Virus record (IMG/VR): IMGVR_UViG_3300021185_003723
DNA: 64,000 bases
Reading direction: 5' to 3' (one strand)
From: an uncultured virus (IMG/VR IMGVR_UViG_3300021185_003723)
Taxonomy: Duplodnaviria > Heunggongvirae > Uroviricota > Caudoviricetes
Shown: piece by piece, positions 7,114-62,379 of the stretch
Layout: the number at the start of each line of letters is the position of its first letter
Position numbering within the stretch: the stretch's first letter is position 1
Made by a program: the position numbers and the translations under genes
The notes under the pieces: model-generated
Seen by the model: only the letters and a program-made list of their open reading frames with translations
Told to the model about the DNA's origin: nothing
The model's database searches: none

Positions 7114-7701
7114 TTATTCTAATAAAGTTGCAACTAAATGCACTCGGTTTTCTTCTCCACCATTAAAAAAGTTATGGTAAACCGTATTATCAGTAATGAA
7201 TACAGTACCATCTGCACGCATATAATACGCTCCATCTTCAATAATCATTCTACAACCTTTGTTTGTAACAAGCGGAATATGAATCCTGCGTTCAGGATCT
7301 CTGTGCCATGATAGACACGATCTTGGTGGCTTCATTAGAAATCGAAGTCTACCTATATCCCACTTTAAACTTAACAAACTAAATACTTCTTCAGTATATG
7401 TGTCCTCAAATTCTGGACAAATTTCTGTATATGCAGCTTCATCTACGTATGGTAGACGTTCTTCTTCTTTGTCTTCGTCGGTTGGATAAGTCCAATACTT
7501 ACCTCTGACATTTCCACCAGTGACCGAGTTAGGATCACCAGGTATTCTATTGACGCATACGGCATTGAAATCAATATTGCGAGCGTCGTCTGTTGCGTGT
7601 TCGTTTTCTTTTATAAATCTAACGTAATCCATATATAGAAGATCGACATCTATATTTAAATCATGTTCCTCGATGGGATCATGCTCACTTATCCATTTCA
7701 C
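7114..7701 (-). CDS. Asp/Asn beta-hydroxylase-like Fe(II)/2OG oxygenase
   Basis: WHRDPERRIHIPLVTN...YHNFFNGGEENRVHLV (HxD...H...RxH). Confidence 0.75.
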   Translation of the reverse strand: MKWISEHDPIEEHDLNIDVDLLYMDYVRFIKENEHATDDARNIDFNAVCVNRIPGDPNSVTGGNVRGKYWTYPTDEDKEEERLPYVDEAAYTEICPEFEDTYTEEVFSLLSLKWDIGRLRFLMKPPRSCLSWHRDPERRIHIPLVTNKGCRMIIEDGAYYMRADGTVFITDNTVYHNFFNGGEENRVHLVATLLE

Positions 7702-7711
7702 TATCTTATCC

Positions 7712-9079
7712 TTATGCTTGCTCAGCTTTTACATATGCTGAGGAATCGTTTGTTTTCGCAGCCATAACATTCACTACTTCAGATGTGAATGCGTCTCTTT
7801 GTGTTTGACTAGCACTCATAATAGCTGCACCTATATGAGCTGCCGCAAGTAATGTATGAACAAAACCTGCATTTTTTTGTTTCATTTCAGATTCGAATTG
7901 TAATCTGTCAGTTTTAGGATGAATTTTTTTGACAAGATTAAAGAAGTCTGTTACTAATTTTTCAGGAGGTCTATTACTAACTAGTAATTTTGCCTGTGTT
8001 ACAAGCTCTTTGTTTGTTGGTAAAATCTTTTTTAAATGTATACCAGAAGAATACATTAATTGGCCATAACCAGTTCTACCTGCTCTAGCACCTGTACCTT
8101 TTAGTTCAAAGTTTAATGCACCAAATACACTGGGAGATCTGACTTCAGCCTTTTTATTATTGTCATAAATGAAAAAACCGTATTTAGACGACCAAATGCT
8201 TTTACCTGCTGCTGTTTCTAATGTGAATCTAGAAAACTTATGAGTGTCTAATATTGAGTCTTCAATATTATAATCACCCAATTTTACTCTTTTATTTTTT
8301 CCAACCTTTTTAAGTGAAATACCAACTATAGTCTTATTTTGAAAATGCTTTAATATTAATATATTTAGCTCAGCTAATGTTTTAGCCTTTGCAAATAGGG
8401 CTTTAGGATCTATTCCTCTTTTTACTGCCCAGATATCGCCTGGATTCCACTTGTCACTATTAAGGCTCGGTTTACTTTCTAATTTTCTTACTCTATCTTT
8501 TGCTTTATAAATTGCTTCCATGACAGAATCACCTCTATGAAGAGTATGATTTTTTGTTACATATTTTTTCTTAATTAAAGCTTGAGCTATTTGATATGCA
8601 GATGCATGCCAATCGCCATCAATATTAACATATGTCTCAAATGCTTCACTTACGTTGACTTTACCCTGATACTTTTTAAGAGTTTCATAAGTAAAATGGG
8701 AAAATTCGTTTCGTGTTCCTTCTCCTAATATTGCAACAATATATAAACAATGTAATGATTCAAACCTTGCCGTGTCTCCTGTAGCACCGCCACCTGCCCC
8801 TTGGCCGCCAAATAATGGAGATTTGCCAATCATATTAGATTGGATAGTACCACCGTTTTTTAAATCTAAACTAACTGACACAGCACTATTGTCAGCTATA
8901 TAGTCCTTCATTGCCTTAATGTTTCTAGAAGTATTAGCAATAAATACGTCTTTCCCGTCAATATCGCTTACGGGATCTCCTGCCTTTATTGCATTAATAA
9001 AGACTTCAACTCTTTCTTGATTAGATCCGCGTACAGGTTTATTCCACTCTGCACGAGCCATTTTAGCAAACGTAGCCAT
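7712..9079 (-). CDS. putative PD-(D/E)xK nuclease-fold protein
   Basis: ESLHCLY, DKWNPGDIWAV, GISLKK motifs; late promoter upstream. Confidence 0.6.
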   Translation of the reverse strand: MATFAKMARAEWNKPVRGSNQERVEVFINAIKAGDPVSDIDGKDVFIANTSRNIKAMKDYIADNSAVSVSLDLKNGGTIQSNMIGKSPLFGGQGAGGGATGDTARFESLHCLYIVAILGEGTRNEFSHFTYETLKKYQGKVNVSEAFETYVNIDGDWHASAYQIAQALIKKKYVTKNHTLHRGDSVMEAIYKAKDRVRKLESKPSLNSDKWNPGDIWAVKRGIDPKALFAKAKTLAELNILILKHFQNKTIVGISLKKVGKNKRVKLGDYNIEDSILDTHKFSRFTLETAAGKSIWSSKYGFFIYDNNKKAEVRSPSVFGALNFELKGTGARAGRTGYGQLMYSSGIHLKKILPTNKELVTQAKLLVSNRPPEKLVTDFFNLVKKIHPKTDRLQFESEMKQKNAGFVHTLLAAAHIGAAIMSASQTQRDAFTSEVVNVMAAKTNDSSAYVKAEQA

Positions 9080-9103
9080 ATCTTCTCCATAGAAACTTAT
9101 CTC

Positions 9104-9111
9104 TATTTATA
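9104..9111 (-). promoter_or_regulatory. T4-type late promoter
   Basis: TATAAATA on minus strand 25 nt upstream of the ATG. Confidence 0.7.
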
Positions 9112-9112
9112 T

Positions 9113-9137
9113 AAAAAGAAAGCAGCCGAAGCTGCTT
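9113..9137 (-). terminator. intrinsic terminator
   Basis: AAGCAGC-TTCG-GCTGCTT then TCTTTTT. Confidence 0.8.
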
Positions 9138-9140
9138 AAG

Positions 9141-9216
9141 TTGGGGAGAAAAAGGTGCCAGTGAGATGCCATGACTGTCCATGAGTCCACTCACTAGCTC
9201 GGCGGGCGTCCCCGAG
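9141..9216 (-). ncRNA. candidate structured small RNA
   Basis: GGGGA/TCCCC closing stem, GCTAGTGAG/CTCACTGGC stem, apical CATG stem; GC-rich intergenic segment before a terminator. Confidence 0.35.
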
Positions 9217-9219
9217 AAC

Positions 9220-9468
9220 CTAGTCACGTCTTTCATAAATGTATGCATCGACTCTGTCGGCATACTTTAGAGGTAGTGACTGGTTGTACCGGCGAACGCC
9301 TCGCCGATGACCACGTGCTTGAAGTTTGATATAGTACCGCTGGTACTTACCATCCTCTTTCAACATTCTGTTGCACTTAGATACAAAGGATCTAAGATCA
9401 GCAATTTGAGGATCTTGACGATCACTAAAAGTTGCTATATACGAATCAGATGTCCGGGTCGTGTACAT
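9220..9468 (-). CDS. hypothetical early protein
   Basis: GGAGG RBS and TAATG overlap give start MYTTRTSD. Confidence 0.7.
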   Translation of the reverse strand: MYTTRTSDSYIATFSDRQDPQIADLRSFVSKCNRMLKEDGKYQRYYIKLQARGHRRGVRRYNQSLPLKYADRVDAYIYERRD

Positions 9469-9668
9469 TACGCTGCCTCCTGCATGTTGCATTCGGCTTG
9501 CATCTCTTGCTCAATGCGAGCTTCATTTATCATAAGGTCTGTGATAATCATATCCAACTCAATTTGAATGTCGTGGCGTGACATGCCAAATGTGTTTGAG
9601 CGACGAAGCAAACCAGATAGTTTGTTCTTCATTGTGATTGTATCTTGAATGTCATTCACTATAAGCAT
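9468..9668 (-). CDS. hypothetical early protein
   Basis: AAGGAG RBS; directly under an early promoter. Confidence 0.7.
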   Translation of the reverse strand: MLIVNDIQDTITMKNKLSGLLRRSNTFGMSRHDIQIELDMIITDLMINEARIEQEMQAECNMQEAA

Positions 9669-9693
9669 TTTTTGATCTCCTTATCATGTAACC

Positions 9694-9749
9694 ATACTAC
9701 CACAGTTAGATGGTAATGTACATAAAAAAATGCGGCGTTAACCGCATTA
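9694..9749 (-). promoter_or_regulatory. terminator plus early promoter cassette
   Basis: Hairpin AATGCGG-TTAACG-CCGCATT plus T-run fused to TGTACA-17-TAGTAT. Confidence 0.75.
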
Positions 9750-9770
9750 ATTTAAAGTGTGTTATTTATA

Positions 9771-9986
9771 TTACAATAGTTCGTTTGGATTGTTTTTGTA
9801 AATTTTAATAAGTTGTGAAAGTGTTAGATTAAAAAAGATAGTGGTTTGAGTGTTATGAGGAGGGAAGATTAGAAAATCGGTAGTAGATGGAAGTTTAAGT
9901 GATTTGATATATTTAATGATTTGAGGAATAGTATTGAAAGATAGAGGTTGATTGTAGTTGGATGGGTTAATAAGTGTATAGGTCAT
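9771..9986 (-). CDS. hypothetical protein encoded by an almost G-free mRNA
   Basis: Own promoter, AAGGA RBS and terminator; 4 G versus 59 C on the coding strand by hand count. Confidence 0.6.
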   Translation of the reverse strand: MTYTLINPSNYNQPLSFNTIPQIIKYIKSLKLPSTTDFLIFPPHNTQTTIFFNLTLSQLIKIYKNNPNELL

Positions 9987-10014
9987 ATATTTTTCCTTTT
10001 TGACTGATATAGCC

Positions 10015-10069
10015 TTTCTACCATACTTTTAAGGAGATGTACATAAAAAAATGCAGCCAAAGCTGCATT
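10015..10069 (-). promoter_or_regulatory. terminator plus early promoter cassette
   Basis: Hairpin AATGCAGC-TTTG-GCTGCATT plus T-run fused to TGTACA-17-TAGAAA. Confidence 0.7.
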
Positions 10070-10094
10070 AATTTATAGTGTATTATTTATGTCA

Positions 10095-11045
10095 CTAGGC
10101 AGCAGTGGCATACGCCACTGCTTTTTCTGCCGCAGTTACTTTTTTAGATTGGTTATAACCAAACCACTGATTGTGAAGACGATTCTCTGAGTTCCGTCCT
10201 TGTAGGTGGTCAGTGTAGTAAGTCACACTGTTAAATGCCTGCCACCATGTACCAGCGGCAAACTGAGCACCTGGCTGAACCTCAAGAGCGTCGTAACACA
10301 TCTTTGCAGCCTTTGACATGTCGTCATAGCTTACAACCGGAGTTTTTTCTTCTTTACGAGATGTAGTTGGAAACACATCGTTGTAATATTGGATAAGAGA
10401 CTCTGCGGTAATTTTACGAGAACCTAAGAACTGAGCCATCTCTTTGTACTTAGCAAACTTTTCAGAAGCAATACCAAGAGTTTCTTTCACAGTATCAGCA
10501 TCAAATGCTGTACGATGTCCAACTTTAACAGAACGCTTTGCATCCTGCTGAAGAGAGAAAGTCAATGTGTTATTACATACAACACGAATTGGAGTAAACC
10601 GTACGTCTACTGCTTTTCCATACTGATGCGGATTTGAGAAGAGAAGGAAAGACTCAATAGTATCTTCTCCAAACACATCAAAAGACTCTTTGACTTTTGC
10701 CAAAGCCCACACATTACGACCTTCTTTCAAAGATCCTGCTGTATGCATTTCCATATCACCAGCAGCAACAAACTCTGAGAAGAAAGTAAATGCTTCTTCG
10801 TTTTGTACTGGCTTCCAATCTTTGCCAGTCACGTCAAGCAAAGTATTATCTGATGTACGGACAAGAGCAACCTTGTCATTGATTTCAAGACCAGATTCAG
10901 TAACGATTTTTTGCTGTTCGACTTCCCAGTCGACTCCAGCTTTTTGCATCATTTGAATTGGTGTTAAGTCATTGCTAACTTCTGTTCCAAGACCGTGCCA
11001 TGGAAGCTCACCTGCGTAAGCCATTGTTTCTACTTCATGAGACAT
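10095..11045 (-). CDS. DUF932/DUF945 family phage/plasmid protein (TIGR03299-like)
   Basis: MSHEVETMAYAGELPWHGLG, PVQNEEAF, TAGSLKEGR, TPIRVVCNNTL, GTWWQAFNSVT. Confidence 0.85.
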   Translation of the reverse strand: MSHEVETMAYAGELPWHGLGTEVSNDLTPIQMMQKAGVDWEVEQQKIVTESGLEINDKVALVRTSDNTLLDVTGKDWKPVQNEEAFTFFSEFVAAGDMEMHTAGSLKEGRNVWALAKVKESFDVFGEDTIESFLLFSNPHQYGKAVDVRFTPIRVVCNNTLTFSLQQDAKRSVKVGHRTAFDADTVKETLGIASEKFAKYKEMAQFLGSRKITAESLIQYYNDVFPTTSRKEEKTPVVSYDDMSKAAKMCYDALEVQPGAQFAAGTWWQAFNSVTYYTDHLQGRNSENRLHNQWFGYNQSKKVTAAEKAVAYATAA

Positions 11046-12302: not shown

Positions 12303-12379
12303 TGGTACTCCCCACAGGACTCGAACCTGTAACCAAAGCGTTATGAGCGCTCTGCTCTAACCAGTTGAGCTAGAGGAGT
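12303..12379 (-). tRNA. tRNA with CAT anticodon, probably tRNA-Ile2 (alternatively Met)
   Basis: Cloverleaf ACTCCTCTAGCTCAACTGGTTAGAGC...CTCATAA...GGTTCGAGTCC...ACCA; C4-G69/C5-G68 pairs as in TilS substrates. Confidence 0.9.
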
Positions 12380-12383
12380 GTGT

Positions 12384-12460
12384 TGGCGGTCCCTATAGGA
12401 TTCGAACCTATGACCTACTGCTTAGAAGGCAGTTGCTCTATCCAGCTGAGCTAAGGAACC
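12384..12460 (-). tRNA. tRNA-Arg(TCT)
   Basis: GGTTCCTTAGCTCAGCTGGATAGAGC...CTTCTAA...GGTTCGAATCC...GCCA. Confidence 0.95.
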
Positions 12461-15845: not shown

Positions 15846-16351
15846 TTTAGTTCTCCGAATTTTATGTCGTGTATTCCCATATGGAATACGATCCGTTCTT
15901 TTGTTGGTGATTGTACGCCATGTGGTTTCTTTGTGTTAAGCACAGTCATAGTATTGTACACAATAGAATCTCGCCCAGTGCCAGATTCAACATATAATTC
16001 GCCTGTATTTTCTGTTACTGGTATTAATACTGAGCATTCACTTTTTACATCAACATGAACAGGCAGCTCACCGCCTTCTAATACTCTAAAAAAATTACAA
16101 CGAAACTCTTTAGGTCTAATGCCAAATTCATTCCATATCGTTTTAATTAGTTTAAGTAACGGCCTATCAAAGTTGTGAATTTCTTGTACAAAGAACTTAT
16201 TCATGTCTTTACCGCCGGTTGCGTCCTTGACATATTCCGAATATAATTTATTACTATCTTGCCATTCACCGGTGAAGTATGGATTCCAAAACGCTGGATC
16301 TACCTCGTAATCTGTTTCAATAAATGAATCATTGCGCCACATTTTAATCAT
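15842..16351 (-). CDS. putative Fe(II)/2OG oxygenase-like cupin
   Basis: LPVHVDV...LNTKKPHGV...ERIVFHM. Confidence 0.65.
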   Translation of the reverse strand: MIKMWRNDSFIETDYEVDPAFWNPYFTGEWQDSNKLYSEYVKDATGGKDMNKFFVQEIHNFDRPLLKLIKTIWNEFGIRPKEFRCNFFRVLEGGELPVHVDVKSECSVLIPVTENTGELYVESGTGRDSIVYNTMTVLNTKKPHGVQSPTKERIVFHMGIHDIKFGELK

Positions 16352-17144
16352 ACAAATCTTCCTGGCCGTTGACTGATAATATAATATGCGATCTTGACGT
16401 AGTGCCTTTATTCCATGCCGAATGCCTTAGTCCTTGATTTAAGAACCAGCAAGATCCTGGCTCCATTGTCTGATACACCTTTTGGCCATCTTCAACGCAG
16501 TAAAATCCACAATCCTTATTAGTAGTAATCGGAATATGGAATCGTATAGAGTAATCAGTATTATAATCAATGTGCTCGGCAACATAAGCACCAGGATCCA
16601 TAATTGCTATTCGTGCACGAGTAACTTCGCCTTTAAACGATTTTATAACTTCTTCCAGATAAGTTCCTTTAACCCAGTCTTTTATGAGATTATAATGGCG
16701 CTCATCAAGTCTGGACTTAGGTATCTTTTTTTCGTACACGCGGTTTTCTTCGGCTGGATTATATTTAGTTAATGCAATTTGTTTGTACGGGGATCCGTTT
16801 ACTTCGTATTTCCCTTGCTCGTCTTGTACAATGTAATCTTCAAACGGTTTGACATAGTTTCTAAAATCCCATGCCATACGCTTGCCGCCAAGACCTTTTC
16901 TAAATTCAGATTCATTTACGTCGTTATCTTGCAAAAACGTGTATGCGTCTTCAATAGTATCAAATTTTAAACCAAACGCCTTCTGGAGTTTTGGCGATTT
17001 GCCACCAACTAATTCACCGTAGCCGTCTTTTTCTTTAAGATCATCAGTTTCATTTGGCATGTTTCTCACAGTTTCAATAATCTTATCTACATCAAATTGA
17101 AGACCTAAATTTTGAAATGGTGGTAGTTCATGTCGCTTTTTCAT
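16344..17144 (-). CDS. Asp/Asn beta-hydroxylase-like oxygenase
   Basis: EHIDYNTDYSIRFHIPITTN...WFLNQGLRHSAWNKGTTSRSHII. Confidence 0.8.
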   Translation of the reverse strand: MKKRHELPPFQNLGLQFDVDKIIETVRNMPNETDDLKEKDGYGELVGGKSPKLQKAFGLKFDTIEDAYTFLQDNDVNESEFRKGLGGKRMAWDFRNYVKPFEDYIVQDEQGKYEVNGSPYKQIALTKYNPAEENRVYEKKIPKSRLDERHYNLIKDWVKGTYLEEVIKSFKGEVTRARIAIMDPGAYVAEHIDYNTDYSIRFHIPITTNKDCGFYCVEDGQKVYQTMEPGSCWFLNQGLRHSAWNKGTTSRSHIILSVNGQEDLYD

Positions 17145-17659
17145 AATTTTGTATATCCTTTATATTGCCAGCATTTAGGACTTTTAGGGCTACATACAGC
17201 AACCTTAGTGTCGTGTATATCCCACATTGTACCTGTGGCCCGCGCTATTTTATTTATCAATTCTGCAAAAACTTTAGGGTTCTTTTCTCTACTTATAAAC
17301 GCCTTTGTGTAACCAACGCGCTTTGCAAAGCTTAATTGTTGCTTTACCATCATTATTAAATGCGGTCGCACCAATTCTCTACCCGGTCTTCTTAGTATAC
17401 GGTCTTCCCAATATCTATTTAATATTCTACACTCACCATCGTCATAAAATTCCTTCCGGCGAAATACTGAGCTAAACCCTACTATACTATCACCGTTAAT
17501 CAATATAGACACACAATCAAACTCGTGCCAATTTATAGTATCATAATTCACATGACCGTAGTTTACTGCGCTTAGGCGTTTAATCAAATCTGGCCGATCG
17601 GCAGGGCAAAATGTTTCAACATTACAATCTGAGTTCCTCAACATAATTCCAGAATTCAT
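17141..17659 (-). CDS. GNAT-like acyltransferase-fold protein
   Basis: IVGFSSV...RILNRYW...QQLSFAKRVGYTKAFISRE pattern. Confidence 0.5.
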   Translation of the reverse strand: MNSGIMLRNSDCNVETFCPADRPDLIKRLSAVNYGHVNYDTINWHEFDCVSILINGDSIVGFSSVFRRKEFYDDGECRILNRYWEDRILRRPGRELVRPHLIMMVKQQLSFAKRVGYTKAFISREKNPKVFAELINKIARATGTMWDIHDTKVAVCSPKSPKCWQYKGYTKL

Positions 17660-18200
17660 TTTTCTTTTTTCCGTGTATTAATAAATGCAATCGATCTTCA
17701 TTTGAATTGTTTTCTACTGAGTGAGGATAGTGGATATTTAAAACAATAGGTACGCCAGGTGCATACGGTATTTCTTCTCCGTCGTGTACAAACTTGCTGC
17801 CTTTAGGATATGTAATAGATATATTTAAAGGATCAAGCCAATTGTGCTCTGGCACATCAACATGCTCAGCTATATAACCACCTGCCTTAATCACTAGATA
17901 TCGTACGTCATCGATGCGCGCGTATGGGAGTGAGCTGACAAATGCCATTGTCTTTGGACATAGTTCTCCGATAGATGTAATTTCTTTTTTGCTGTTACGT
18001 CCATATTCCCAATGGCTATTTGTGCTTTGAGCATTGACGCCATAGAGTGTCATAGCAAACCAGTCTTTATGTCCATCTTCTGGTCTATGAATAACCAGTG
18101 AATCTTTTACTGCGTTATACTCATTTTCAATGTCTAAACATGGAACATCAAATCCCATCTTAACCCATTTAGCGCTGTCGCTTCTTTTCATGATGGTCAT
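17622..18200 (-). CDS. Asp/Asn beta-hydroxylase-like oxygenase
   Basis: GGYIAEHVD...LNISITYP...HSVENNSNEDRLHLLIHG; AAGGA RBS before 18200. Confidence 0.8.
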   Translation of the reverse strand: MTIMKRSDSAKWVKMGFDVPCLDIENEYNAVKDSLVIHRPEDGHKDWFAMTLYGVNAQSTNSHWEYGRNSKKEITSIGELCPKTMAFVSSLPYARIDDVRYLVIKAGGYIAEHVDVPEHNWLDPLNISITYPKGSKFVHDGEEIPYAPGVPIVLNIHYPHSVENNSNEDRLHLLIHGKKKNEFWNYVEELRL

Positions 18201-18732
18201 AGTGATTTCCTTCAAATGGTGCAAATGCATTTATCCACCAACGATTTCTCGCGCCATCATCATCGTGGCCTAATAAATTAAGAAGTCCATAGCAAATGAA
18301 TGATAAAGGAACAAGTGAAATAAAATACAATACAAGCACTGGACTAATGGCAAAGGCTATAGCGTACGTTGCGATAAAAGTGTATAAACGATTTCTATGA
18401 AAGAATACGACGCGAGGATTTTCATACAAATCTTTAACAAACCTGCGAGGTATTTTTTTAATTCTGTATGTAGAAAACAATATTTCTAACCAGCTTTTGT
18501 ATTTAGGAGAATGTGGATCTTTTTCGGTATCAGCGTATGCATGGTGCATACGATGAACGCCTGCCCAACTTAGTGGCGAACAACCGCTAGCTATTGTTCC
18601 TGCCCATATGACAGTTGCTTCGAGCGGAGGAAATAGAATAATTTGTTTATGAGAGATACATCTATGAAATCCGACTGTTAAACCGACAGCAGCCATAATC
18701 CAATAGAAAGCATACATACTAATAAAAATCAT
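18169..18732 (-). CDS. membrane fatty acid desaturase (delta-9/DesC-like, compact)
   Basis: His boxes HRCISH, HRMHH, HYDHH; DTEKDPHSP; TM segments. Confidence 0.85.
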   Translation of the reverse strand: MIFISMYAFYWIMAAVGLTVGFHRCISHKQIILFPPLEATVIWAGTIASGCSPLSWAGVHRMHHAYADTEKDPHSPKYKSWLEILFSTYRIKKIPRRFVKDLYENPRVVFFHRNRLYTFIATYAIAFAISPVLVLYFISLVPLSFICYGLLNLLGHDDDGARNRWWINAFAPFEGNHYDHHEKKRQR

Positions 18733-19197: not shown

Positions 19198-19428
19198 TTA
19201 TTTTCGATTCCAGATTTCGTATAGAACCCAAACAGCAAGTAAACCTACAAGGCCTTGTGATCCCAATGCGGCTATCATAGCACTTACATTAGCCACAACG
19301 CTTACAGCAGGAATGAATGGAAGTGTTCCCACACCCAATACTTCAAGTACAATCATGAGAGCGGCGATACTAATACCGACTTCTGCTAATCCAGCAGCCC
19401 ATGTTTTTACTTTGTTTAGAATGTCCAT
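19198..19428 (-). CDS. small membrane protein
   Basis: Two hydrophobic segments; AAGGGGA RBS. Confidence 0.7.
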   Translation of the reverse strand: MDILNKVKTWAAGLAEVGISIAALMIVLEVLGVGTLPFIPAVSVVANVSAMIAALGSQGLVGLLAVWVLYEIWNRK

Positions 19429-19449
19429 AGTTGTCCCCTTAAGAAGTTA

Positions 19450-19703
19450 AAACGCCACACTTCTGTTACTAGGCAGTGACCGCCCTCTTAATTATGCAGC
19501 TAGTGCGTAACCAGATGGTGCAAAGTTATTGTTTGCATTTGTAGTGATTGACCTATTTCGCAGTCAGCCGGTAAACTCCACGTCACTTTCACACCTGTCG
19601 ATCCTATTTCAGCCCCATCAAAAATACACATTATGTACTTATGGTGGAGCTGCCGGGTACCGCCCCCGGGTCCAGTATGTGTCTACGTTGCTTCAACGTT
19701 TAC
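19450..19703 (-). ncRNA. ssrA: circularly permuted two-piece tmRNA
   Basis: Acceptor piece ends GGGGGCGGTACCCGGCAGCTCCACCA (19642); spacer; coding piece starts GGGGCTGAAATAGGATCGAC (19616); tag ANNNFAPSGYALAA* at 19536-19492; outer ends approximate. Confidence 0.9.
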
Positions 19704-19797
19704 AAGATTATTTATGATGTATTCAGCGTAATCTTTAACTATACGTGGGCTGTGTGATATTATTATCACCCTTCCGTCTTCGCCATAAGCTGTGTAT

Positions 19798-24900: not shown

Positions 24901-25821
24901 CTAAAAATAGGATTTATACCAGGAAATAAATTTAGTTATCCCGGCTTCAACTGTAGTCTTCGGCTCATAGCCTAGTCTTTTGATTTTAGTAATATCTGCT
25001 AAGGTATGCTGCACGTCTGCTGGATGCATCGGTGCAAATTCTTTAATAGCTTCAATACCTAAATTCTCTTCAATAAGTTCGACAAAGCGCATGAGCGGAG
25101 TTGACTTGCCCCCGCCAATGTTGTATATGTCATGGCCTTCGCTTTTTGTAACTTTGTCTATAAGTAATTGTACACCATTTATGATGTCTTGTACATAGGT
25201 AAAATCACGCGACATATCACCATTGTTGTAAATAGTTATAGGCTGATTATTTACAATCGAGTCCGCAAAGCTATACAATGCCATGTCAGGTCGTCCGAGA
25301 GGGCCATAAACTGTAAAAAATCTAAAACCGATCGACGCAGGAATTTTACTATGTTTAAACTGGCACTCATTTGCGTATTTGCTCCATGCGTACGGATTAC
25401 TTAAATGTGGGACAAGCGTGTCTTCAGTAAAGTTGTTGCCACCATAAACAGAAGACGAAGATGCATAAACTACAGGTATTTGATATTTCTCAGCGATATT
25501 GATAACTTGCTGAGTTCCTGTAACGTTATTATCTATATAGGTTTGCGGATTTTCAAGCGAATATCTTACGCCTGCGTAACCTGCCAGATGTAGAATAACA
25601 TCAGCGTCTTTAACTATATCGCTCATATGCAGTGTAGACAAAGATCCATGATCTACACGGATCTGTCTTTCCTTTAATAACTTGGCGCGCCAGTTCTTGA
25701 GGTGGACGTCATAGTACGAATTAAAGTCATCAATGCCAGCCACCTGATGCCCGGCTTCTTGTAAGTTCCAAGCAGCGTGATATCCTATAAAGCCTGCGAT
25801 ACCTGTTATAACAATTTTCAT
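24901..25821 (-). CDS. NAD-dependent epimerase (UDP-glucuronate 4-epimerase-like)
   Basis: TGIAGFIG, HLAGYAGVRYS, YASSSSVYG, YAWSK, RFFTVYGPLGRPDMA. Confidence 0.9.
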   Translation of the reverse strand: MKIVITGIAGFIGYHAAWNLQEAGHQVAGIDDFNSYYDVHLKNWRAKLLKERQIRVDHGSLSTLHMSDIVKDADVILHLAGYAGVRYSLENPQTYIDNNVTGTQQVINIAEKYQIPVVYASSSSVYGGNNFTEDTLVPHLSNPYAWSKYANECQFKHSKIPASIGFRFFTVYGPLGRPDMALYSFADSIVNNQPITIYNNGDMSRDFTYVQDIINGVQLLIDKVTKSEGHDIYNIGGGKSTPLMRFVELIEENLGIEAIKEFAPMHPADVQHTLADITKIKRLGYEPKTTVEAGITKFISWYKSYF

Positions 25822-26702
25822 CTTTCGTTAACTGGAGCAACTTCTCCACTCATATTGTACTGCACGTTCTGAGCCTTTTCACGATCATCTAATTCATAGA
25901 GCGATCTATATATGTCGTTTTCTTCTATAACAAAATCAAGAATTGGAAACTGTTGTCTGCCGGGTTTGCTCTGAGCATAAGAATTAAATGCTCTTGTATC
26001 TTTAGGAAAGCACGCACCTCCAAACCCTAGTTTGCCATCATAGCCTGGTGTGCGTGTATGTGAAGAATTAATTCGTTCGTCAGTTGACATAATGCTAATG
26101 ACCTTATCAGCATTGCCACCACGATCATTGACTAGTTCTTTAAACTGATTGAACCATAACACTTTTGATGCAAGATAACAATTAAGACCATACTTAATAA
26201 AGCTTGCATCTGCCACAGTCATATGATAAACTGGCACATTGACGTTAACCATGCTATATTCATAATAAATGCGCGCTAATTCATCTGTAGCTTCTTTATT
26301 ACCTCCAAAGACATGCATGCGTGGATTGACGATGTCTTGATTTGCATTTTTCTCAGTAAGAAATTCTGGTGCGTATACAATGCGGCGTTTAAGATTATCT
26401 GTAATAATCTCGTCTAAGATGTCTGGTGTAACAGTTGATTTAATAACGATCAAGCCAGTCATCCGCCGCTTAATTTTTTTCATAGTGTCTATCAAGATAG
26501 ACGCATCAATTTTACCATCTTCGCCCATAGGCGTAGGAACACACACAAACGTAACATCTTCTTCTAATTTTTTAGTCGAATCAATACAGCTGCCATAGAT
26601 CGGATCAATGATTTTCTTTTCAACATTGTGTTGGAAAGCGTAGTCAATAGCTTTGCCTACAAAACCATGGCCAACAATAGTCATGCGCAGTTTATTATTC
26701 AT
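25818..26702 (-). CDS. UDP-glucose/GDP-mannose 6-dehydrogenase family protein
   Basis: GHGFVG, FVCVPTP, IKSTVTP, PEFLTE, GFGGACFPKD. Confidence 0.9.
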   Translation of the reverse strand: MNNKLRMTIVGHGFVGKAIDYAFQHNVEKKIIDPIYGSCIDSTKKLEEDVTFVCVPTPMGEDGKIDASILIDTMKKIKRRMTGLIVIKSTVTPDILDEIITDNLKRRIVYAPEFLTEKNANQDIVNPRMHVFGGNKEATDELARIYYEYSMVNVNVPVYHMTVADASFIKYGLNCYLASKVLWFNQFKELVNDRGGNADKVISIMSTDERINSSHTRTPGYDGKLGFGGACFPKDTRAFNSYAQSKPGRQQFPILDFVIEENDIYRSLYELDDREKAQNVQYNMSGEVAPVNER

Positions 26703-27151
26703 ACATCTTTTCCCATAAATTGATATTTTACACCGGCTTCGTCAAACATCTGTGCAGAGAGCAGCCAAGAATCTCTCCACTTAGGATTACTAAAGTCGGC
26801 CAATTCCATGACCACACGTTTGACGCCAACTTGTACAATGCCCTTAGCACATTCAGAACAGCATGGCAGCCCTGTCACGTACAATGTAGATCCTTCAAGT
26901 GACACACCACTAAAAGCTGCATTGAATATAGCGTTCATTTCAGCGTGAACAATAAATTTATACTTCTTGTCTCTATCGCTTAAGCGATCTTCAGTATCGT
27001 CTACGCCACGCGCAAAGCCGTTATAACCTTGTGCTAGCACTTGACCTTTATTGCCAACAGCTACTGCTCCAACTTTACTTGATGGATCTTTAGACCATGT
27101 CGCAACAACATTTGCTAGTTCTAAGTAGCGCTCATCCCATTTATTTGACAA
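26699..27151 (-). CDS. cd: dCMP deaminase
   Basis: SKDPSSKVGAV, GYNG, HAEMNA, PCCSECAK; probable TTG start (ORF extends to 27205). Confidence 0.9.
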   Translation of the reverse strand: MSNKWDERYLELANVVATWSKDPSSKVGAVAVGNKGQVLAQGYNGFARGVDDTEDRLSDRDKKYKFIVHAEMNAIFNAAFSGVSLEGSTLYVTGLPCCSECAKGIVQVGVKRVVMELADFSNPKWRDSWLLSAQMFDEAGVKYQFMGKDV

Positions 27152-27812
27152 GGTTGAAGTGCCTTTCATACACATGTAAGTTTTGTACTTGCCACTGAAT
27201 AGCACCTGGTTCGATACCTAAATCGCTTGCAAGAGTTTTAAGAACGTATTGCTGCCAAGCATAATCATTTTTATAGCCAAACACAACGTCATTAGATCGC
27301 ATCTGTACGACTGCCTGTAGTTCACCATTGCGAATATAATATGTTACTGCGTTAGTACAAATAAAATCGTTCTTGCTATTTTCCTGAAACTCGACTTGAA
27401 TAGATGGGCGGTTGTAAATCATACAAGCTCGTCTACTATCAGGATTTTCAGTTAGCTCAATAAGCGCTTGCTCATATTGCCGGAAGTACTTATCGTCAAA
27501 TATCAGATGGCCATAGTTCGAGTTAATCTCACCGTGGCGGTTTGCAGAGTATTTCCATGCTTGTGGAGGTTCGCGTTCATCGCCATATATGTCATTAATA
27601 TTTGTAGATCCGCTCATATACCAATCAATTTCTTTATCAACATATTCTTGATTTACCTCACCAAAAATAGAAGGCTCGGTGGCCAGAAAACTAGCACCGA
27701 GCATTTCGATAGTCTTTGAACCTAAGCGATCAGTCGTAAACGCTTCGTCTTTAAGTTCGTTTATAAAATACTGACGTACATCAGCTACTGTCTGCTCTCG
27801 CACGAGTCGCAT
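27141..27812 (-). CDS. gp42: T4 gp42-like dCMP hydroxymethylase/hydroxylase (thymidylate synthase fold)
   Basis: INSNYG, DFICTNAVTY, MRSNDVVFGYKNDYAWQ, LHVYERHF closely match T4 gp42 motifs; Asp at the base-specificity position. Confidence 0.85.
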   Translation of the reverse strand: MRLVREQTVADVRQYFINELKDEAFTTDRLGSKTIEMLGASFLATEPSIFGEVNQEYVDKEIDWYMSGSTNINDIYGDEREPPQAWKYSANRHGEINSNYGHLIFDDKYFRQYEQALIELTENPDSRRACMIYNRPSIQVEFQENSKNDFICTNAVTYYIRNGELQAVVQMRSNDVVFGYKNDYAWQQYVLKTLASDLGIEPGAIQWQVQNLHVYERHFNLVK

Positions 27813-28221
27813 GTTCTGCCTCCATCACACGTTGACGTAGATCGCTAGTGCTAAATCTATGGTCACGCTTGTTAAAATATATTTGTATGCCACGGTTGCG
27901 GCACTCATCTCGGCCTGTGAAATCTTTGTCTTTGTATTCTACGCCTAAGATACGCACATCAATGTCATACATGTTTATTATATCACATAAATCATCCTCT
28001 GTACAGTAAATAATGACCTCGTCTACATATTTTATTGCGCTCAGTTGGGCTTGTCGTTCGACTATAGACTGGACCGGTTTATTCTTGCTAGGCCTATCTA
28101 TGGAAGGGTCTACTTGCAAAGCACAAATGAGATAATCGCATTGTGCCTTAGCTTCACGTAACATTGATATGTGGCCGGCGTGTAACAAATCAAATGTAGA
28201 TGCCGTAAATCCGGTAATCAT
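27781..28221 (-). CDS. TagD-like cytidylyltransferase
   Basis: TFDLLHAGH, QSIVER, YVDEV, RDHRFSTSDLR. Confidence 0.85.
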   Translation of the reverse strand: MITGFTASTFDLLHAGHISMLREAKAQCDYLICALQVDPSIDRPSKNKPVQSIVERQAQLSAIKYVDEVIIYCTEDDLCDIINMYDIDVRILGVEYKDKDFTGRDECRNRGIQIYFNKRDHRFSTSDLRQRVMEAEHATRARADSS

Positions 28222-28412
28222 GGCTTATTTGCATCAGCAATAACTGAGCGGCGGCCTTCAGGCCCAAGTTGATTATCTAGCATATTTTTAACTTTTTGAA
28301 GTAACACACACGCAAGCATTAAAATATCTTCGCGATCATCGCACAACATAATTTGACGATCAATCGGTTCAGATAATTCGAGCATCCGTTTTGTGATAGG
28401 ATTTATCGCCAT
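28218..28412 (-). CDS. hypothetical protein
   Basis: 64 aa, overlaps both neighbours. Confidence 0.6.
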   Translation of the reverse strand: MAINPITKRMLELSEPIDRQIMLCDDREDILMLACVLLQKVKNMLDNQLGPEGRRSVIADANKP

Positions 28413-29200
28413 GATGCTGCCGCCTTAATTTTCTGAATGTTGTCTGCTAATTTTATGTTAAATTGATTATCTGTTTGATCTGCATACAAGCCTTCTGATA
28501 AAGCTCGACTGAAACTTGCACCCATGTTTTGGTGCTTTAATTTAGTACATGCATCGTCTGTAGAATAACCACCACTCAACGCAACGATCTTAGCAACATT
28601 ATTATACAAATATAAGCTGGAATACAAATACGGCTTTTCAGGGATCGTCAATTTAAGTATTAAGCTCTTTTTAAATTCTGACAAATATGTAGGCAGTGCT
28701 TTTGCTAATGCGTCTTCTAGGTGTGGCTTGTCTTTAGAATCAATTGGTATCTCAGGTTCTACAATAGGAATTAATCCTTTGTCAGCAATAAAACTGGCAA
28801 ATCTAAACTGTTGCTCTAAGATATGGTGCAGCCACCGTTCTGTTTTTATAATAGATCGCATCTTAGTGCCAATCATATTATGTGCTCTAGCATAGTTGCA
28901 CATATCTTCAACACCAAACGGTTTTAACATACCGGCATCATCACAACCACTATCAATTTTGAGATAGGGTGAAATGCCTTTTTTTCTTAGAATAGGAACC
29001 ATGCCGCGATCAACAGTGTCTTTATATAAGATAGCTCCTGAGATGTTGTTATTAGTAAATGCCGGACAGTCTACCATACGAAGGCGCATGCTGTGTACTT
29101 TATCCATTTTATTGTCTTCAGTGTATTTCTCGCCATAACGTTCGAGAACACCTCCGGTCGAACCACCACTGTGATCCATGGCTGCAATAAACTTGCCCAT
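28403..29200 (-). CDS. fructose-bisphosphate aldolase class I
   Basis: FIAAMDHSGGST, LKIDSG, GTKMRS, PIVEPEI, LKLTIP, VALSGGYS, ASFSRALSEGL. Confidence 0.9.
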   Translation of the reverse strand: MGKFIAAMDHSGGSTGGVLERYGEKYTEDNKMDKVHSMRLRMVDCPAFTNNNISGAILYKDTVDRGMVPILRKKGISPYLKIDSGCDDAGMLKPFGVEDMCNYARAHNMIGTKMRSIIKTERWLHHILEQQFRFASFIADKGLIPIVEPEIPIDSKDKPHLEDALAKALPTYLSEFKKSLILKLTIPEKPYLYSSLYLYNNVAKIVALSGGYSTDDACTKLKHQNMGASFSRALSEGLYADQTDNQFNIKLADNIQKIKAAASWR

Positions 29201-29418
29201 TATTCTAGCCCTAGGCAGGGAATCAAAATAGACTGAGCACAGTTATCTGGATAAGCAATTGCCGAACCGAGAATAGGTAAACCTACCATCCCAATAATGA
29301 TAATCAAAAATGCCCAACCTAGGCCTTTAGTAGTGCAATAATTATGATGAGGTTCTTCAGACATTTTCATATAATCTCCTGCCGTAGTAAATTTTAAGTC
29401 TTGCATTTCATTATTCAT
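29200..29418 (-). CDS. small membrane protein
   Basis: GGAGGAG RBS; TM LGWAFLIIIIGMVGLPILG. Confidence 0.6.
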   Translation of the reverse strand: MNNEMQDLKFTTAGDYMKMSEEPHHNYCTTKGLGWAFLIIIIGMVGLPILGSAIAYPDNCAQSILIPCLGLE

Positions 29419-29854
29419 GCTCTCCTCCGTTACCGCGGCCGTTGTATCCGCCAAATATACTTGGTTTACGTTTGGCGGTTTCAAATGTTACTACGGTTAT
29501 TGCGATCGCCGCTAACAGTAATGCGTGCAGCATCATGCTAACAATACCTGCCCACATACTACCTACTACAATAGCAAACACAATACACCACATCCATGCA
29601 AGAACCTGCATAATCATATGGCGTGTACTAAAATCAGGAATATTGCTTAGTGGATTTTTCTCATGATCCATCACAACATTCCAACAATTATATACCCATT
29701 CTTTCATTGATATTATCCTTTTAAAAATCACCTTTGTTGGATAGTGAGCATCAATATCGTCACGGTACTCTATTGCATCGTGGACGTTATCAAACTCTTG
29801 TGATACTTTTCGATCTTTAAAGTGAGCTGTCACTCTATAAATTAGTTTGTCCAT
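29411..29854 (-). CDS. membrane hypothetical protein
   Basis: NPLSNIPD...QVLAWMWCIVF; internal AAGGA/ATG at 29707 may be a second start. Confidence 0.65.
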   Translation of the reverse strand: MDKLIYRVTAHFKDRKVSQEFDNVHDAIEYRDDIDAHYPTKVIFKRIISMKEWVYNCWNVVMDHEKNPLSNIPDFSTRHMIMQVLAWMWCIVFAIVVGSMWAGIVSMMLHALLLAAIAITVVTFETAKRKPSIFGGYNGRGNGGEHE

Positions 29855-30192
29855 TACTCATAACTTTCACCGGTTGCGCGAAAGAAGTTTTCACTCCAGA
29901 ACGCTTTGTCGTCAATCCAAATATCGTAGTTTTCTTTTTCGCCGACACTCAGCTCATTATACTTACACCCCCATTCGTCTAATTGCTTCTTAGTTAAATC
30001 AAAATAGTCAATACCACTTACGCATCCTCGAGCTGTCATATATTTAATAGTGTGGCCAGCATCGAACAACGCATTTACTTTTGCAATGCGTTCTGTCATA
30101 GGAATGTGGTTAGCATAATCTTTCTTGCCGCCACTATCAGGAATAATTACTTCCTTGCATATAGTGCCATCGATGTCAATTACGTATTTCAT
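29854..30192 (-). CDS. capless HAD phosphatase
   Basis: DIDGT, TARG, K...DIWIDDKA. Confidence 0.8.
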   Translation of the reverse strand: MKYVIDIDGTICKEVIIPDSGGKKDYANHIPMTERIAKVNALFDAGHTIKYMTARGCVSGIDYFDLTKKQLDEWGCKYNELSVGEKENYDIWIDDKAFWSENFFRATGESYE

Positions 30193-30530
30193 GCGTGCCC
30201 TACAGTTTCACGCTTGATATCGTTGTGGTTAAACTCGGCCCAATACAATTCAAACGCAACACCTGATTGTACGCATTCAAATTGATGGTATACGCCTGGT
30301 GGCACTTTGTGATATTGACCTGGGCCAATAATAGTTTCATCAACTAAATCATAAGAGTTTTGCCAAACGCGAACTTTCATAATACCTTCTTCAACGTAAA
30401 ACCCGTTCCATTTAAATTCGTGCATATGCTTAGAACACGTGCCACCCTCATTCATCTCAATACGATGAAACTCTAAAGCTCCGTTTGCTTCTACGAGTTC
30501 TGTTTGTCCCCATACTTTACCAGCAATCAT
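30189..30530 (-). CDS. cupin, sugar isomerase/epimerase-like
   Basis: GKVWG, CSKHMHEFKWNGFYV, PPGVYHQF. Confidence 0.75.
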   Translation of the reverse strand: MIAGKVWGQTELVEANGALEFHRIEMNEGGTCSKHMHEFKWNGFYVEEGIMKVRVWQNSYDLVDETIIGPGQYHKVPPGVYHQFECVQSGVAFELYWAEFNHNDIKRETVGHA

Positions 30531-31191
30531 TCCATTTCCTTGCATCTTTTGGTGTGTTAATTTCTATTCCGCTAAAGGTCACTGGAAGAACACCAATGTC
30601 CCAACCATTTTTTAACCAGCGCAATTGTTCTAATTGTTCAATTCGTTCTTCGCGGGTGCCGATTAGGTTTGGATACAATTCTAACGCTTCACGTTGATAA
30701 CCGTATATTCCTAAATGCCAATCGCCATAACCAGTCATCCCTCTGCCAAACCACAGGCACTTACCATTACCTCTTACTAATTTAACAGAATTAGGATTGT
30801 TTTGTTCTTCTTCAGGCATCATGGTACATACTGTTGATACCTTATATTGATTTAGTTGTATCTGAGTTTTTTCAATCATCTCAACAGTTACATCTGGCAT
30901 ATCACCTTGGACATTAATAAATTGATCGTATTGTTTTAAAGCTCTCCATTTTAATGCGCCAGCACATCGCTCAGTTCCGTTTGCATATTCTGCTTCCTCA
31001 ATCCAGCAATTACGATCGCTGAATAAATTAAAGATCCGCATATCATCAGTAAGAATGTAAGTGTCTAATCCTGTTTTGATACATGTATTATATACACGCT
31101 CAATCATGGTCATGCCAGCAAGGTAGACAAGCGGCTTACCAGGAAATCTGCTTGACTCATAACGAGCTGGAATAAGAATAGCGGTTTTCAT
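30517..31191 (-). CDS. kdsB: CMP-Kdo synthetase
   Basis: IPARYESSRFPGKPL, NGTER, INVQGDMP, HLGIYGY, EQLEQLRWL. Confidence 0.9.
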   Translation of the reverse strand: MKTAILIPARYESSRFPGKPLVYLAGMTMIERVYNTCIKTGLDTYILTDDMRIFNLFSDRNCWIEEAEYANGTERCAGALKWRALKQYDQFINVQGDMPDVTVEMIEKTQIQLNQYKVSTVCTMMPEEEQNNPNSVKLVRGNGKCLWFGRGMTGYGDWHLGIYGYQREALELYPNLIGTREERIEQLEQLRWLKNGWDIGVLPVTFSGIEINTPKDARKWNDCW

Positions 31192-31204
31192 TTTATGGTC
31201 AGCC

Positions 31205-31972
31205 TTAGTGTTTTTTTAAAGAATAAGCCATTATGTCAATTATGACGCTTTCAAAATCGTCTAGTCTTAGCATATTAGGTCCATCGCTTGGTGCGTTATC
31301 TGGGTCAGGATGAACTTCTAAGAAAAAGTTGCTAACTCCCAAAGCAGCCGCAGCACGAGTAAGACCTGGAACGTAGTCACGATTACCACCAGACGAGTTG
31401 CCGAGGCCGCCAGGCTGCTGACACGAGTGGGTCGCATCAAATACGATCGATACATCATAGTTATTAAGCATGTACTGAAGGCCATTAAAATCGACCACAA
31501 GATTGTTATATCCAAAGCTAGTTCCTCTTTCGGTAATCCATACTTCCTCAGCATTTTCGCACTTACTTAATATTCCTGCGACATCCCATGCTGCTAGAAA
31601 CTGGCCCTTCTTAATATTAACAATACAGTCTGTTTTGCAAGCTGTTTGTATAAGATCAGTTTGCCTAGATAAAAAGGCTGGAATTTGCAAAACATCCACA
31701 ACATCTCGGCATCTACTAATTTGACCTTCAGTATGAACATCTGTTAGGATCTTAACTCCGAGTTTTTCTTTTATATCGATGAAGTCAATAAGCGTGTTGT
31801 CTATTCCGACGCCTCGCTTTCCATCAATAGAACTGCGGTTAGCTTTATCAAAGCTTGCCTTAAAGTAATAATTAATATTGTATCTATGACAAACTTCTTG
31901 GCAATGTTTAGCAATTGCTAACGATTGTTCTAATGACTCATGTTGGCAAGGGCCAGCAATAACTGTAAGCAT
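31205..31972 (-). CDS. kdsA: Kdo-8-phosphate synthase
   Basis: IAGPC, KASFDKANRSS, LQIPAFLSRQTDL, NIKKGQF, ERGTSFGY, DATHS, SDGPN. Confidence 0.95.
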   Translation of the reverse strand: MLTVIAGPCQHESLEQSLAIAKHCQEVCHRYNINYYFKASFDKANRSSIDGKRGVGIDNTLIDFIDIKEKLGVKILTDVHTEGQISRCRDVVDVLQIPAFLSRQTDLIQTACKTDCIVNIKKGQFLAAWDVAGILSKCENAEEVWITERGTSFGYNNLVVDFNGLQYMLNNYDVSIVFDATHSCQQPGGLGNSSGGNRDYVPGLTRAAAALGVSNFFLEVHPDPDNAPSDGPNMLRLDDFESVIIDIMAYSLKKH

Positions 31973-32337
31973 TACGACGCGCCTTTGCCAAAGGTAATTG
32001 GCCAACCGGCTCGTTCAAGATCAACAGGCGTAAGTTCTTCGCGAAAGCGATCATCTTGATTTACATGCTTAGCATGATTCATTAGAATAATAATTTGCGT
32101 AGCAGCATGAGCTAAGTGCGTGAAGCCTGATTCAGGATCGACATCTTCACAGTCATTCCATGCAGTAAGGTGGCGTTGGATAGACGCATATGTTTCAGAC
32201 CAACTAGTGGTAGAACCATCATGGCGCCAGTTGTTGCGGCCATACTTATCTGCGCCAAAGCCAAATACTTCTGCAATTTGTGTAAGTTGCTCAGTCGGAA
32301 TAAGGTCTAGCTGTGGTTTACCGGCATTATATTTCAT
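31972..32337 (-). CDS. dATP/dGTP diphosphohydrolase N-terminal domain protein (DUF5664-like)
   Basis: KYNAGKPQLDLIP, GADKYGRNNW, RHL...DPESGFTHLAHA. Confidence 0.85.
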   Translation of the reverse strand: MKYNAGKPQLDLIPTEQLTQIAEVFGFGADKYGRNNWRHDGSTTSWSETYASIQRHLTAWNDCEDVDPESGFTHLAHAATQIIILMNHAKHVNQDDRFREELTPVDLERAGWPITFGKGAS

Positions 32338-33762: not shown

Positions 33763-33766
33763 AATA

Positions 33767-34213: not shown

Positions 34214-34223
34214 ATCATATCCT

Positions 34224-62194: not shown

Positions 62195-62379
62195 AACTAG
62201 ATTCGCAAATACGTGCAGCTCAAATATACGGCACAATTGCGGCGCATACAGACAGCAAACCCAATCAACAACCTGTCAAAACATTACGACGCAGAGTTCA
62301 ACCAATTGTAGCGACGCCAGCAGTAAAGCCTAAACCGCGCTATTTGCGGCTAGGGCAATACGTAGATATTATTGCATGA
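62191..62379 (+). CDS. small hypothetical protein
   Basis: ATGA overlaps on both sides; ends LGQYVDIIA. Confidence 0.6.
   Translation: MKLDSQIRAAQIYGTIAAHTDSKPNQQPVKTLRRRVQPIVATPAVKPKPRYLRLGQYVDIIA

Follow-up and report, generated by a model that had tools for sequence, protein, structure and literature searches.

A small early-type gene nearly free of guanine in uncultured marine T4-like phages, with signs of selection against G

The locus, its cassette and its phage

The stretch of DNA analyzed here (64 kb, referred to below as the window) is part of a T4-like myovirus genome, with genes for gp23, gp20, gp18, terminase, UvsX/Y/W, RegA, the clamp, the clamp loader and a family B polymerase, nearly all of them on the minus strand. 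Judged by a DUF932 gene next to the locus of interest, the nearest named phages are Methylophilales phage Melnitz (56%) and the Sinorhizobium phiM12 group. At the locus lies a 71-codon ORF (Table 1) whose coding strand has, by direct count, 81 A, 72 T, 59 C and 4 G. The four G are at nt 3 (the ATG), 109 (GAT, Asp37), 205 (GAA, Glu69) and 213 (TTG, Leu71), and the encoded protein lacks Gly, Ala, Val, Arg, Trp and Cys, with Met only at the start. An earlier note on this DNA had reported 4 G and 59 C in 216 nt with G-free runs of about 95 and 105 nt, had placed the G in the ATG, one Asp, one Glu and the last Leu codon, and had listed the six missing amino acids; direct counting and translation bear out each of these statements. 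Seen from the plus strand, the runs are C-free stretches of 105 nt (9879-9983) and 95 nt (9783-9877), the longest other such run within the window being 38 nt.

The depletion is sharply delimited. G makes up 0.0185 of the ORF, compared with 0.213 ± 0.031 across the 99 window ORFs, where the runner-up has 0.15. Sliding segments of 216 nt contain on average 45.2 C on the plus strand (sd 6.5), and values of 14 or fewer occur only within 9693-10057, where the minimum is 3; no other part of the 64 kb comes near the ORF in this statistic, which the earlier note had suggested computing. Its statement that the skew is limited to the ORF also holds, as the flanks are normal in G (18 per 114 nt upstream and 17 per 110 nt downstream). 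By simple arithmetic, a G-free run of at least 95 nt has p ~2e-10 per start at a G frequency of 0.21, and ~3e-5 such runs would be expected by chance in 128,000 positions. G-free codons account for 49% of window codons, and the probability of finding 67 or more among 71 is 1.5e-16.

Near-identical units lie on both sides of the ORF. In each, a stem-loop and its T-run are followed by TGTACA, a 17-nt spacer whose last three bases are TGG, a -10-like hexamer and finally a Shine-Dalgarno (SD) sequence. The upstream predicted terminator (hairpin 10069-10050) closes the DUF932 gene and fronts the cassette of the G-poor ORF. The putative early promoter that follows has a 17-nt spacer with TGG directly before the -10, and its motif is conserved 5' of the homologues; the form TTTATGTACA occurs in three exact minus-strand copies (9717, 10038 and 12994). 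A consensus promoter scan listed TGTACA-N17-TATAAT at 11287-11259, left the TGTACA-N17-TAGAAA of the G-poor ORF unlisted, and gave no convincing plus-strand promoter. In several homologous cassettes, the SD is AAGGAG. The earlier note had credited the ORF with a promoter, SD and terminator of its own: the SD is present and terminators are predicted on both sides, while the promoter is putative. The neighboring 66-aa ORF, which has a like promoter type, has a normal G content (0.209). Contigs from four RNA runs in four studies, placed on 9300-10500, cover 9300-9672 and 10194-10500 with nothing in 9710-10160, a pattern of contig cover that tells of neither expression nor silence.

Table 1. Features of the G-poor cassette, its borders and the gp42-type gene (all on the minus strand; positions in the window)
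Feature	Position	Strand	Description
Pair CATAAATA / TATAAATT, similar to TATAAATA	10091-10070	minus	Sequence motif
Upstream stem-loop terminator AATGCAGC-TTTG-GCTGCATT with T-run	10045..10069	minus	Predicted; 8 pairs, 4 GC
Putative early promoter	10015..10043	minus	-35-like TGTACA 10043-10038, -10-like TAGAAA 10020-10015; putative
Shine-Dalgarno AAGGA	9994..9998	minus	7 nt before ATG
G-poor ORF	9771..9986	minus	ATG...TAA, 216 nt, 71 aa
TATAAATA directly 3' of stop	9763..9770	minus	Sequence motif
Downstream stem-loop terminator AATGCGG-TTAACG-CCGCATT with T-run	9724..9748	minus	Predicted hairpin 9748-9729, 8 pairs
Promoter-like TGTACA-N17-TAGTAT of next cassette	9694..9722	minus	Sequence; serves 66-aa ORF 9468-9668
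gp42-type dCMP hydroxymethylase	27141..27812	minus	E 2.9e-67 to PDB 1B49/1B5E (T4); Pfam Thymidylat_synt

The motifs TATAAATA, CATAAATA and TATAAATT each lie between a stop codon and the next terminator hairpin. They match the T4 late-promoter consensus, with which TATAAATA is identical, and by this match the cassettes may carry late promoters too.

The arrangement resembles the promoter-early stem-loops (PeSLs) that, in passages of two papers on T4-type phages, are described as shuffling accessory ORFs (Arbiol et al. 2010, PMC2839356; Comeau et al. 2014, PMC4122927). As in the PeSLs of those passages, a stem-loop terminator, here predicted from hairpins 10069-10050 and 9748-9729 with their T-runs, is joined to a sigma-70-like early promoter, putative here, and an SD. 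The unit is repeated among small accessory ORFs of a variable region in which ORFs are inserted, deleted and replaced, and the G-poor gene has been gained, lost and moved between close relatives at such units. One difference is that the hexamers here (TGTACA / TAGAAA) lie farther from the E. coli consensus, in a promoter that is putative. Taken together, these sequence features show the G-poor gene as the sole ORF of a PeSL-type cassette made up of a terminator, an SD and an early promoter, the last of these putative. PeSLs as portrayed in those passages would account for the movement and switching on of the gene, not for its base composition.

The earlier note had also pointed to a gp42 locus elsewhere in the genome, and this is real: the gene matches the T4 dCMP hydroxymethylase (Table 1). 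With such an enzyme encoded, the phage DNA probably contains hydroxymethylcytosine in place of cytosine. Sugar-nucleotide genes are dense near the gp42 homologue and a dCMP deaminase (24901-32005 and 61447-63257); the set includes an epimerase, a UDP-glucose dehydrogenase-like protein, cytidylyltransferases, a KDO-8-P-synthase-like DAHP_synth_1 protein, a CMP-KDO-synthetase-like protein, a phosphomannomutase and a carbamoyltransferase, and its gene content suggests an elaborate hypermodification of hydroxymethylcytosine. Two further minus-strand genes of nucleotide metabolism encode a protein with a dATP/dGTP diphosphohydrolase N-terminal domain (PF18909; 31972-32337) and a MazG-like PRA-PH protein (33767-34240). 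They flank a 318-aa ORF (32833-33789) for which neither Pfam nor the PDB yielded a sequence match. The idea of a Z-genome or of GTP draining was set aside, this ORF being without a PDB sequence match and no PurZ having been found. The window also contains, on the minus strand, a tmRNA-like gene called by ARAGORN (19401-19735; tag peptide ANNNFAPSGYALAA), adjacent phage genes for tRNA-Met (CAT) and tRNA-Arg (TCT) (12303-12460) and three separate Asp/Asn beta-hydroxylase-like (2OG oxygenase) genes (7114-7701, 16344-17144 and 17622-18230), as well as a fatty-acid-desaturase-like gene at 18169-18732.

Coding status and distribution of the G-poor gene

Evidence that the ORF is a genuine gene comes first from its pattern of divergence. 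In a codon alignment of 14 distinct sequences, 40, 24 and 61 of the 71 columns are variable at codon positions 1, 2 and 3, respectively. Nei-Gojobori dN/dS is 0.07-0.31 in 13 pairs, and dS exceeds 1 between the two main clades. Family members are 70, 71 or 75 codons long, every length difference being in frame, and all 23 distinct sequences end in TAA. The codon ATA makes up 2 of the 106 Ile codons of the family versus 26.5% in window genes; this looks like the bias of a well-translated gene, since the capsid, scaffold and tail-tube genes (gp23, scaffold and gp19) also avoid ATA (0%). An AlphaFold2 model built from 17 sequences (pLDDT 85, pTM 0.73) has the order strand-strand-helix-strand-strand-helix, and the product is thus predicted with confidence to adopt a small alpha/beta fold. 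On this evidence, the ORF is a genuine protein-coding gene, an accessory one, carried by an uncultured marine T4-like myovirus.

The protein (70-71 aa) is made almost solely of F, L, I, S, P, T, Y, H, Q, N and K, and residues beyond these eleven G-free amino acids number 64 in 1,600 over 23 sequences. It has no match in Pfam or PHROGs, and a Foldseek search of the PDB and BFVD with the AlphaFold2 model gave nothing at E <= 1e-3. Wide VIA-align searching reached a best Z of 4.5, with weak ERH/GYF-like rows at noise level, and the ESM atlas gave a best score of 0.84 and nothing usable.

Homologues were recovered from environmental sequence. A word-based search found five protein clusters at 67-99% identity, and a profile search of 1.84 billion representative proteins returned the family itself, one truncated copy and a repeat protein that is a spurious match. 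Among those 1.84 billion representatives, the search brought out no homologue of ordinary G content, a finding that the earlier note had said would speak against its idea. Against 50,697 phage records, a set from which near-identical entries may have been left out, neither megablast of 9000-11000 nor tblastn of the 71 aa gave a match. Scans of IMG/VR and of metagenome contigs yielded 18 loci (17 full length) and 24 loci (21 full length), respectively. All full-length copies, 213-228 nt long, are G-poor, with 2-6 G in each of the 17 from IMG/VR and 1-6 in each of the 21 from metagenomes. These copies provide 23 distinct DNA sequences with 54-100% protein identity, whose G counts are 1 and 2 (one sequence each), 3 (six sequences), and 4, 5 and 6 (five sequences each); where the count is 1 (L137), the sole G is that of the ATG. 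At least half of the sampled words of 9300-10500 are contained in 14 DNA runs from 8 studies, one of which may be the source sample. An assembly artefact, another objection raised in the earlier note, can be dismissed because the gene is carried by the full-length loci of both collections and by DNA runs.

The gene comes and goes between close relatives. It is missing from four loci (L005, L007, L008 and L009) whose DUF932 neighbor is 93-95% identical to that of the window, it lies 2.2 kb farther off in L002/L003, and it has other neighbors in L086, L089, L091 and L096. By this distribution, the gene acts as a one-gene cassette within a variable region. One copy (L130:1001-1228) has an in-frame 15-nt tandem duplication near the N-terminus (YTLLN YTLLN), and the duplicated part is G-free. 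The truncated copy from the profile search (P0006) is a 73-aa ORF in which a part of the G-poor gene is fused in frame to a translated terminator-promoter unit (...KCALCAFFYVH...), which looks like a trace of recombination at a cassette border.

Such base composition is exceptional in these genomes. Among 3,834 ORFs of at least 120 nt in the window and the first 80 neighbor loci, any base falls below 6% in three kinds only: the G-poor family, another small ORF (L010) and one chance-looking ORF of 42 codons. In five related records of 135-220 kb, the sole G-free run of at least 80 nt on either strand is the G-poor gene. Runs free of one base in L076, L059, L012, L017 and L028 were rejected as G-less genes, being a tandem repeat, AT-rich spacers and purine-rich coding sequence. 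The other small ORF (L010:2100-2282, identical to L099:1501-1683) encodes a different protein of 60 aa in the same cassette type and has 5 G in 183 nt; its relatives (L100-L105, 61-72% identity) have 10-13 G in 177-180 nt, far under background, and proteins of this second family are 58-60 aa long. No homology between the two families was detected by hhalign (E 0.066, probability 0.8%), and the AlphaFold2 models of both share the order beta-alpha-beta-beta-alpha. From these sequences, it may be that low G content is shared, to varying degrees, by more of the small early genes in such phages. In one clade (L091:2739-2930, L092 and L098:2790-2990), the next gene downstream, of 63-66 aa (MKSFTFQPNPTFQFSLLPIFT...), has its first 50-60 nt past the ATG free of G and a normal G content thereafter.

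Avoidance of G at synonymous and amino-acid positions

Across the family, the share of G is 3.8% at the first codon position, 0.0% at the second and 1.0% at the third, where window genes have 15%. Where an A-ending and a G-ending codon are both available, the choice is one-sided: AAA versus AAG for Lys is 57:0, CAA versus CAG for Gln is 63:0, and GAA versus GAG for Glu is 18:0. In the phage's highly expressed structural genes, AAG and CAG still account for 19-45%. When the expectation was derived from each protein sequence and the codon usage of the phage, 8-11 G-containing codons were expected per sequence at residues with G-free synonyms, and 0-2 were observed (P = 2e-6 to 2e-3 per sequence; the sequences are related, and the P values are not independent); structural-gene usage gave a similar outcome. 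The few synonymous G codons are unevenly placed: they make up 5 of 27 choice codons at the final two positions of the gene and 3 of 900 in the rest of it. C at position 3 stands at 23% versus 17% expected.

Two specific routes to this composition were rejected. G-to-A hypermutation does not describe the change, as all three other bases have gained on the window means (C +20, T +12, A +9) in place of the lost G. Avoidance of GA in particular, as would suit a GA-specific enzyme of the CmdT type, does not describe it either, as the remaining G are mostly in GA (GAT, GAA and GAC).

The depletion exceeds chance, extends to synonymous sites and is found in diverged homologues, as target-site avoidance would have it. 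The earlier note had proposed that selection acts on nucleotide content and had suggested looking at synonymous sites of divergent homologues. Its proposal is supported, since synonymous sites are saturated between the clades and nevertheless avoid G in all homologues, and G is avoided at the amino-acid level too, in a protein under purifying selection. Codon choice across the family shows that selection, not chance or local mutation bias, excludes G from the sense strand, and with it C from the template strand, between codon 2 and about the third-last codon; by the same alignments, the exclusion acts at both the synonymous and the amino-acid level in every homologue found.

Possible reasons for the exclusion of G

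The explanation that we prefer, with a confidence about evenly balanced between belief and disbelief, is that exclusion of G serves "hit avoidance," by which the gene would keep working under an attack that proceeds base by base. Some agent would strike individual bases, each with a given probability; it would meet ~45 targets in an ordinary gene of equal length and 1-6 in the G-poor gene, so that expression of the latter would survive where expression of other genes fails. The target could be G in RNA or in the nucleotide pool, or modified C in the template strand. Three candidate agents appear about equally likely: damage or roadblocks at modified cytosines of the template, for example through excision by glycosylases of the Brig1 type; trouble specific to G while RNA is being made, for instance through the chain-terminating ddhGTP of prokaryotic viperins or a shortage of GTP; and cleavage or modification of the mRNA at G. 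Among the reasons offered in the earlier note, low GTP, G-directed RNases or ADP-ribosylating toxins, and a C-free template in DNA with modified cytosines are all candidates. Passages of the respective publications state that Brig1 makes abasic sites at glucosyl-hmC (PMC11078745) and, in a review, that ddhGTP, which terminates RNA chains, is a product of viperins (PMC13276650). On this explanation, the encoded protein would be an early factor needed under exactly that condition, and possibly the countermeasure itself.

Two details of the codon data favor hit avoidance, though not decisively. Hit avoidance is preferred over an explanation by unstructured or C-rich RNA because even a single synonymous G is purged, although its effect on the fold of the RNA and on binding by Rho would be slight. 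The looser exclusion at the final two codons fits a truncation-type hit, which would cost least at that place. Other observations limit the model. The 5' leader, SD and terminator stem retain ~8-10 G, so protection would be partial. Since an early gene is transcribed before most inducible defenses fire, only constitutive agents or starvation states would fit. The gene for the gp42 homologue is found in the four carrier records that span the replication module and also in two of five relatives that lack the G-poor gene, which makes the link to modified cytosine compatible with the data but unspecific.

A G-free RNA is also structure-free and Rho-friendly, and sequence alone cannot separate these properties from hit avoidance. 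The selected property might accordingly be an RNA that cannot fold for want of G-C and G-U pairs, allowing fast helicase-independent translation (e.g., in the cold), a short mRNA life or recognition by a protein with a preference for C-rich, G-poor single strands; in a variant included in the same judgment, the transcript would be a super rut site or a Rho decoy. The ORF RNA has a minimum free energy of -1.8 kcal/mol; 91 window ORFs, folded over their first 216 nt, gave -45.9 ± 9.4, with -27.1 for the least structured apart from the G-poor one. The ORF RNA contains 27% C, 1.9% G and 35 YC dinucleotides. Rho is described, in passages of PMC6144790, as using its YC clefts to bind single-stranded RNA, rich in C and poor in G, over 60-80 nt, and the ORF RNA is like the rut sites and C>G bubbles of those passages in being C-rich, G-poor and unstructured over more than 60-80 nt with many YC dimers. 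The somewhat raised third-position C and the high-expression type of codon bias point the same way. Unlike those rut sites, however, the G-poor stretch is far more strongly depleted and lies inside an ORF with a strong SD, followed by an intrinsic terminator. With that SD and the coding signature, ribosomes should cover the RNA, so that it does not look like ribosome-free RNA 5' of a Rho-dependent release site, and the predicted intrinsic terminator within ~25 nt downstream leaves no obvious role for Rho termination. One or two added G would barely alter folding or Rho binding, yet they have been purged (3/900), and the highly expressed structural genes of the same phage tolerate AAG and CAG. 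We therefore consider selection for unfoldable or Rho-binding RNA rather unlikely. An improbable alternative is a constraint on codons or tRNAs, under which the mRNA could be read when tRNAs for Gly, Ala, Val, Arg, Trp, Cys, Asp and Glu are cleaved, uncharged or scarce. In its favor, G is excluded over just the span of the ORF, nine amino acids are almost or entirely missing, and ATA, which is read by a special tRNA, is avoided too. Yet the avoidance extends to AAG and GAG and to NNG in Thr, Pro, Ser and Leu, and in E. coli-type decoding G-ending codons share U34 tRNAs with A-ending ones; the suggestion of the earlier note that translation is independent of certain tRNAs therefore fits poorly. 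ATA avoidance is, moreover, common to gp23, scaffold and gp19, and the protein is rich in Lys, Tyr, His and Asn, whose tRNAs known anticodon nucleases attack.

Explanations that dispense with a selected G-poor mRNA fare worse. Animal mitochondria offer a precedent in which mutation bias causes strong strand-specific depletion of G at synonymous sites, and a local strand-specific bias, or descent from a skewed sequence by de novo birth, could in principle leave a similar mark with no selection on base content. Such a bias is highly improbable here: the skew begins at codon 2 and stops at the stop codon, with the leader, the terminator and the adjacent ORF of the same promoter type all normal; it lasts at dS > 1 across differing genomic contexts; nine amino acids have been replaced under dN/dS of 0.07-0.31; and the lost G is shared among C, T and A rather than passing to one base. 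To an equally slight degree, we entertain a DNA or RNA element that is not a protein gene, for example an R-loop or origin element using the G-rich, C-free plus strand, whose GC skew reaches +0.86. Against such an element stand the codon-position pattern of substitution with its low dN/dS and in-frame length differences, the TAA stop and conserved SD in all copies, the confident fold prediction, and the lack of a convincing plus-strand promoter in the promoter scan.

Several known systems resemble the G-poor gene in part. Restriction-site avoidance in phages is a form of target-site avoidance, and synthetic "G-less cassettes" for in vitro transcription, like three-letter alphabets used against secondary structure, are man-made, non-coding sequences. 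The G-poor gene is like the synthetic cassettes in having a sense strand of at least 200 nt without G (apart from its few exceptions), which could be transcribed without GTP and is predicted to be unfoldable, and unlike them in being natural, coding, conserved and diverging in environmental phages. We know of no cognate enzyme for its target avoidance. Passages of one study describe ACA-less mRNAs as being translated in MazF-expressing cells (PMC5408214), which illustrates how an mRNA could evade a sequence-specific nuclease, and the parallel with these is that the recognition target of the attacker is purged, synonymous sites included. Unlike those engineered mRNAs, the G-poor gene is natural, the purged "site" is a whole nucleotide, and the cost is nine amino acids. 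Long natural stretches without one base are called rare in a passage of a methods paper (PMC6526412), and a search of the literature on G-less or guanine-free genes, in a set outside which most subscription journals lie, found no comparable gene described.

A more far-reaching version of hit avoidance, possible but doubtful in our view, is that the cassette is an "immunity-proof" counter-defense unit, with no (hydroxymethyl)cytosine in the template and no G in the mRNA (the residual G aside), and with a 71-aa protein that inhibits defense. It would still be transcribed and translated once a host defense working base by base has crippled all other phage genes; defenses of this sort would be modified-C glycosylases, ddhGTP chain terminators, and G-directed RNases or ADP-ribosyltransferases. 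That the gene has an anti-defense role at all is a guess.

If selection holds a gene nearly free of one base, the infected cell contains an agent acting on that single base strongly enough to reshape a gene and its protein, and the G-poor gene would be a ready-made probe for such an agent through comparison of native and G-restored alleles. It is also a natural example of a G-less mRNA predicted to be structure-free, and of a predicted folded protein built from ~11-14 types of amino acid, which bears on the design of proteins with reduced alphabets. Should hit avoidance be the true explanation, the gene would represent an extreme form of target-site avoidance, and it may point to a counter-defense protein in abundant marine T4-like phages. 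Should the "immunity-proof" reading be true, these phages would exemplify a new design principle, in which an attack is escaped by omitting one letter, with a reduced amino-acid alphabet as the price.
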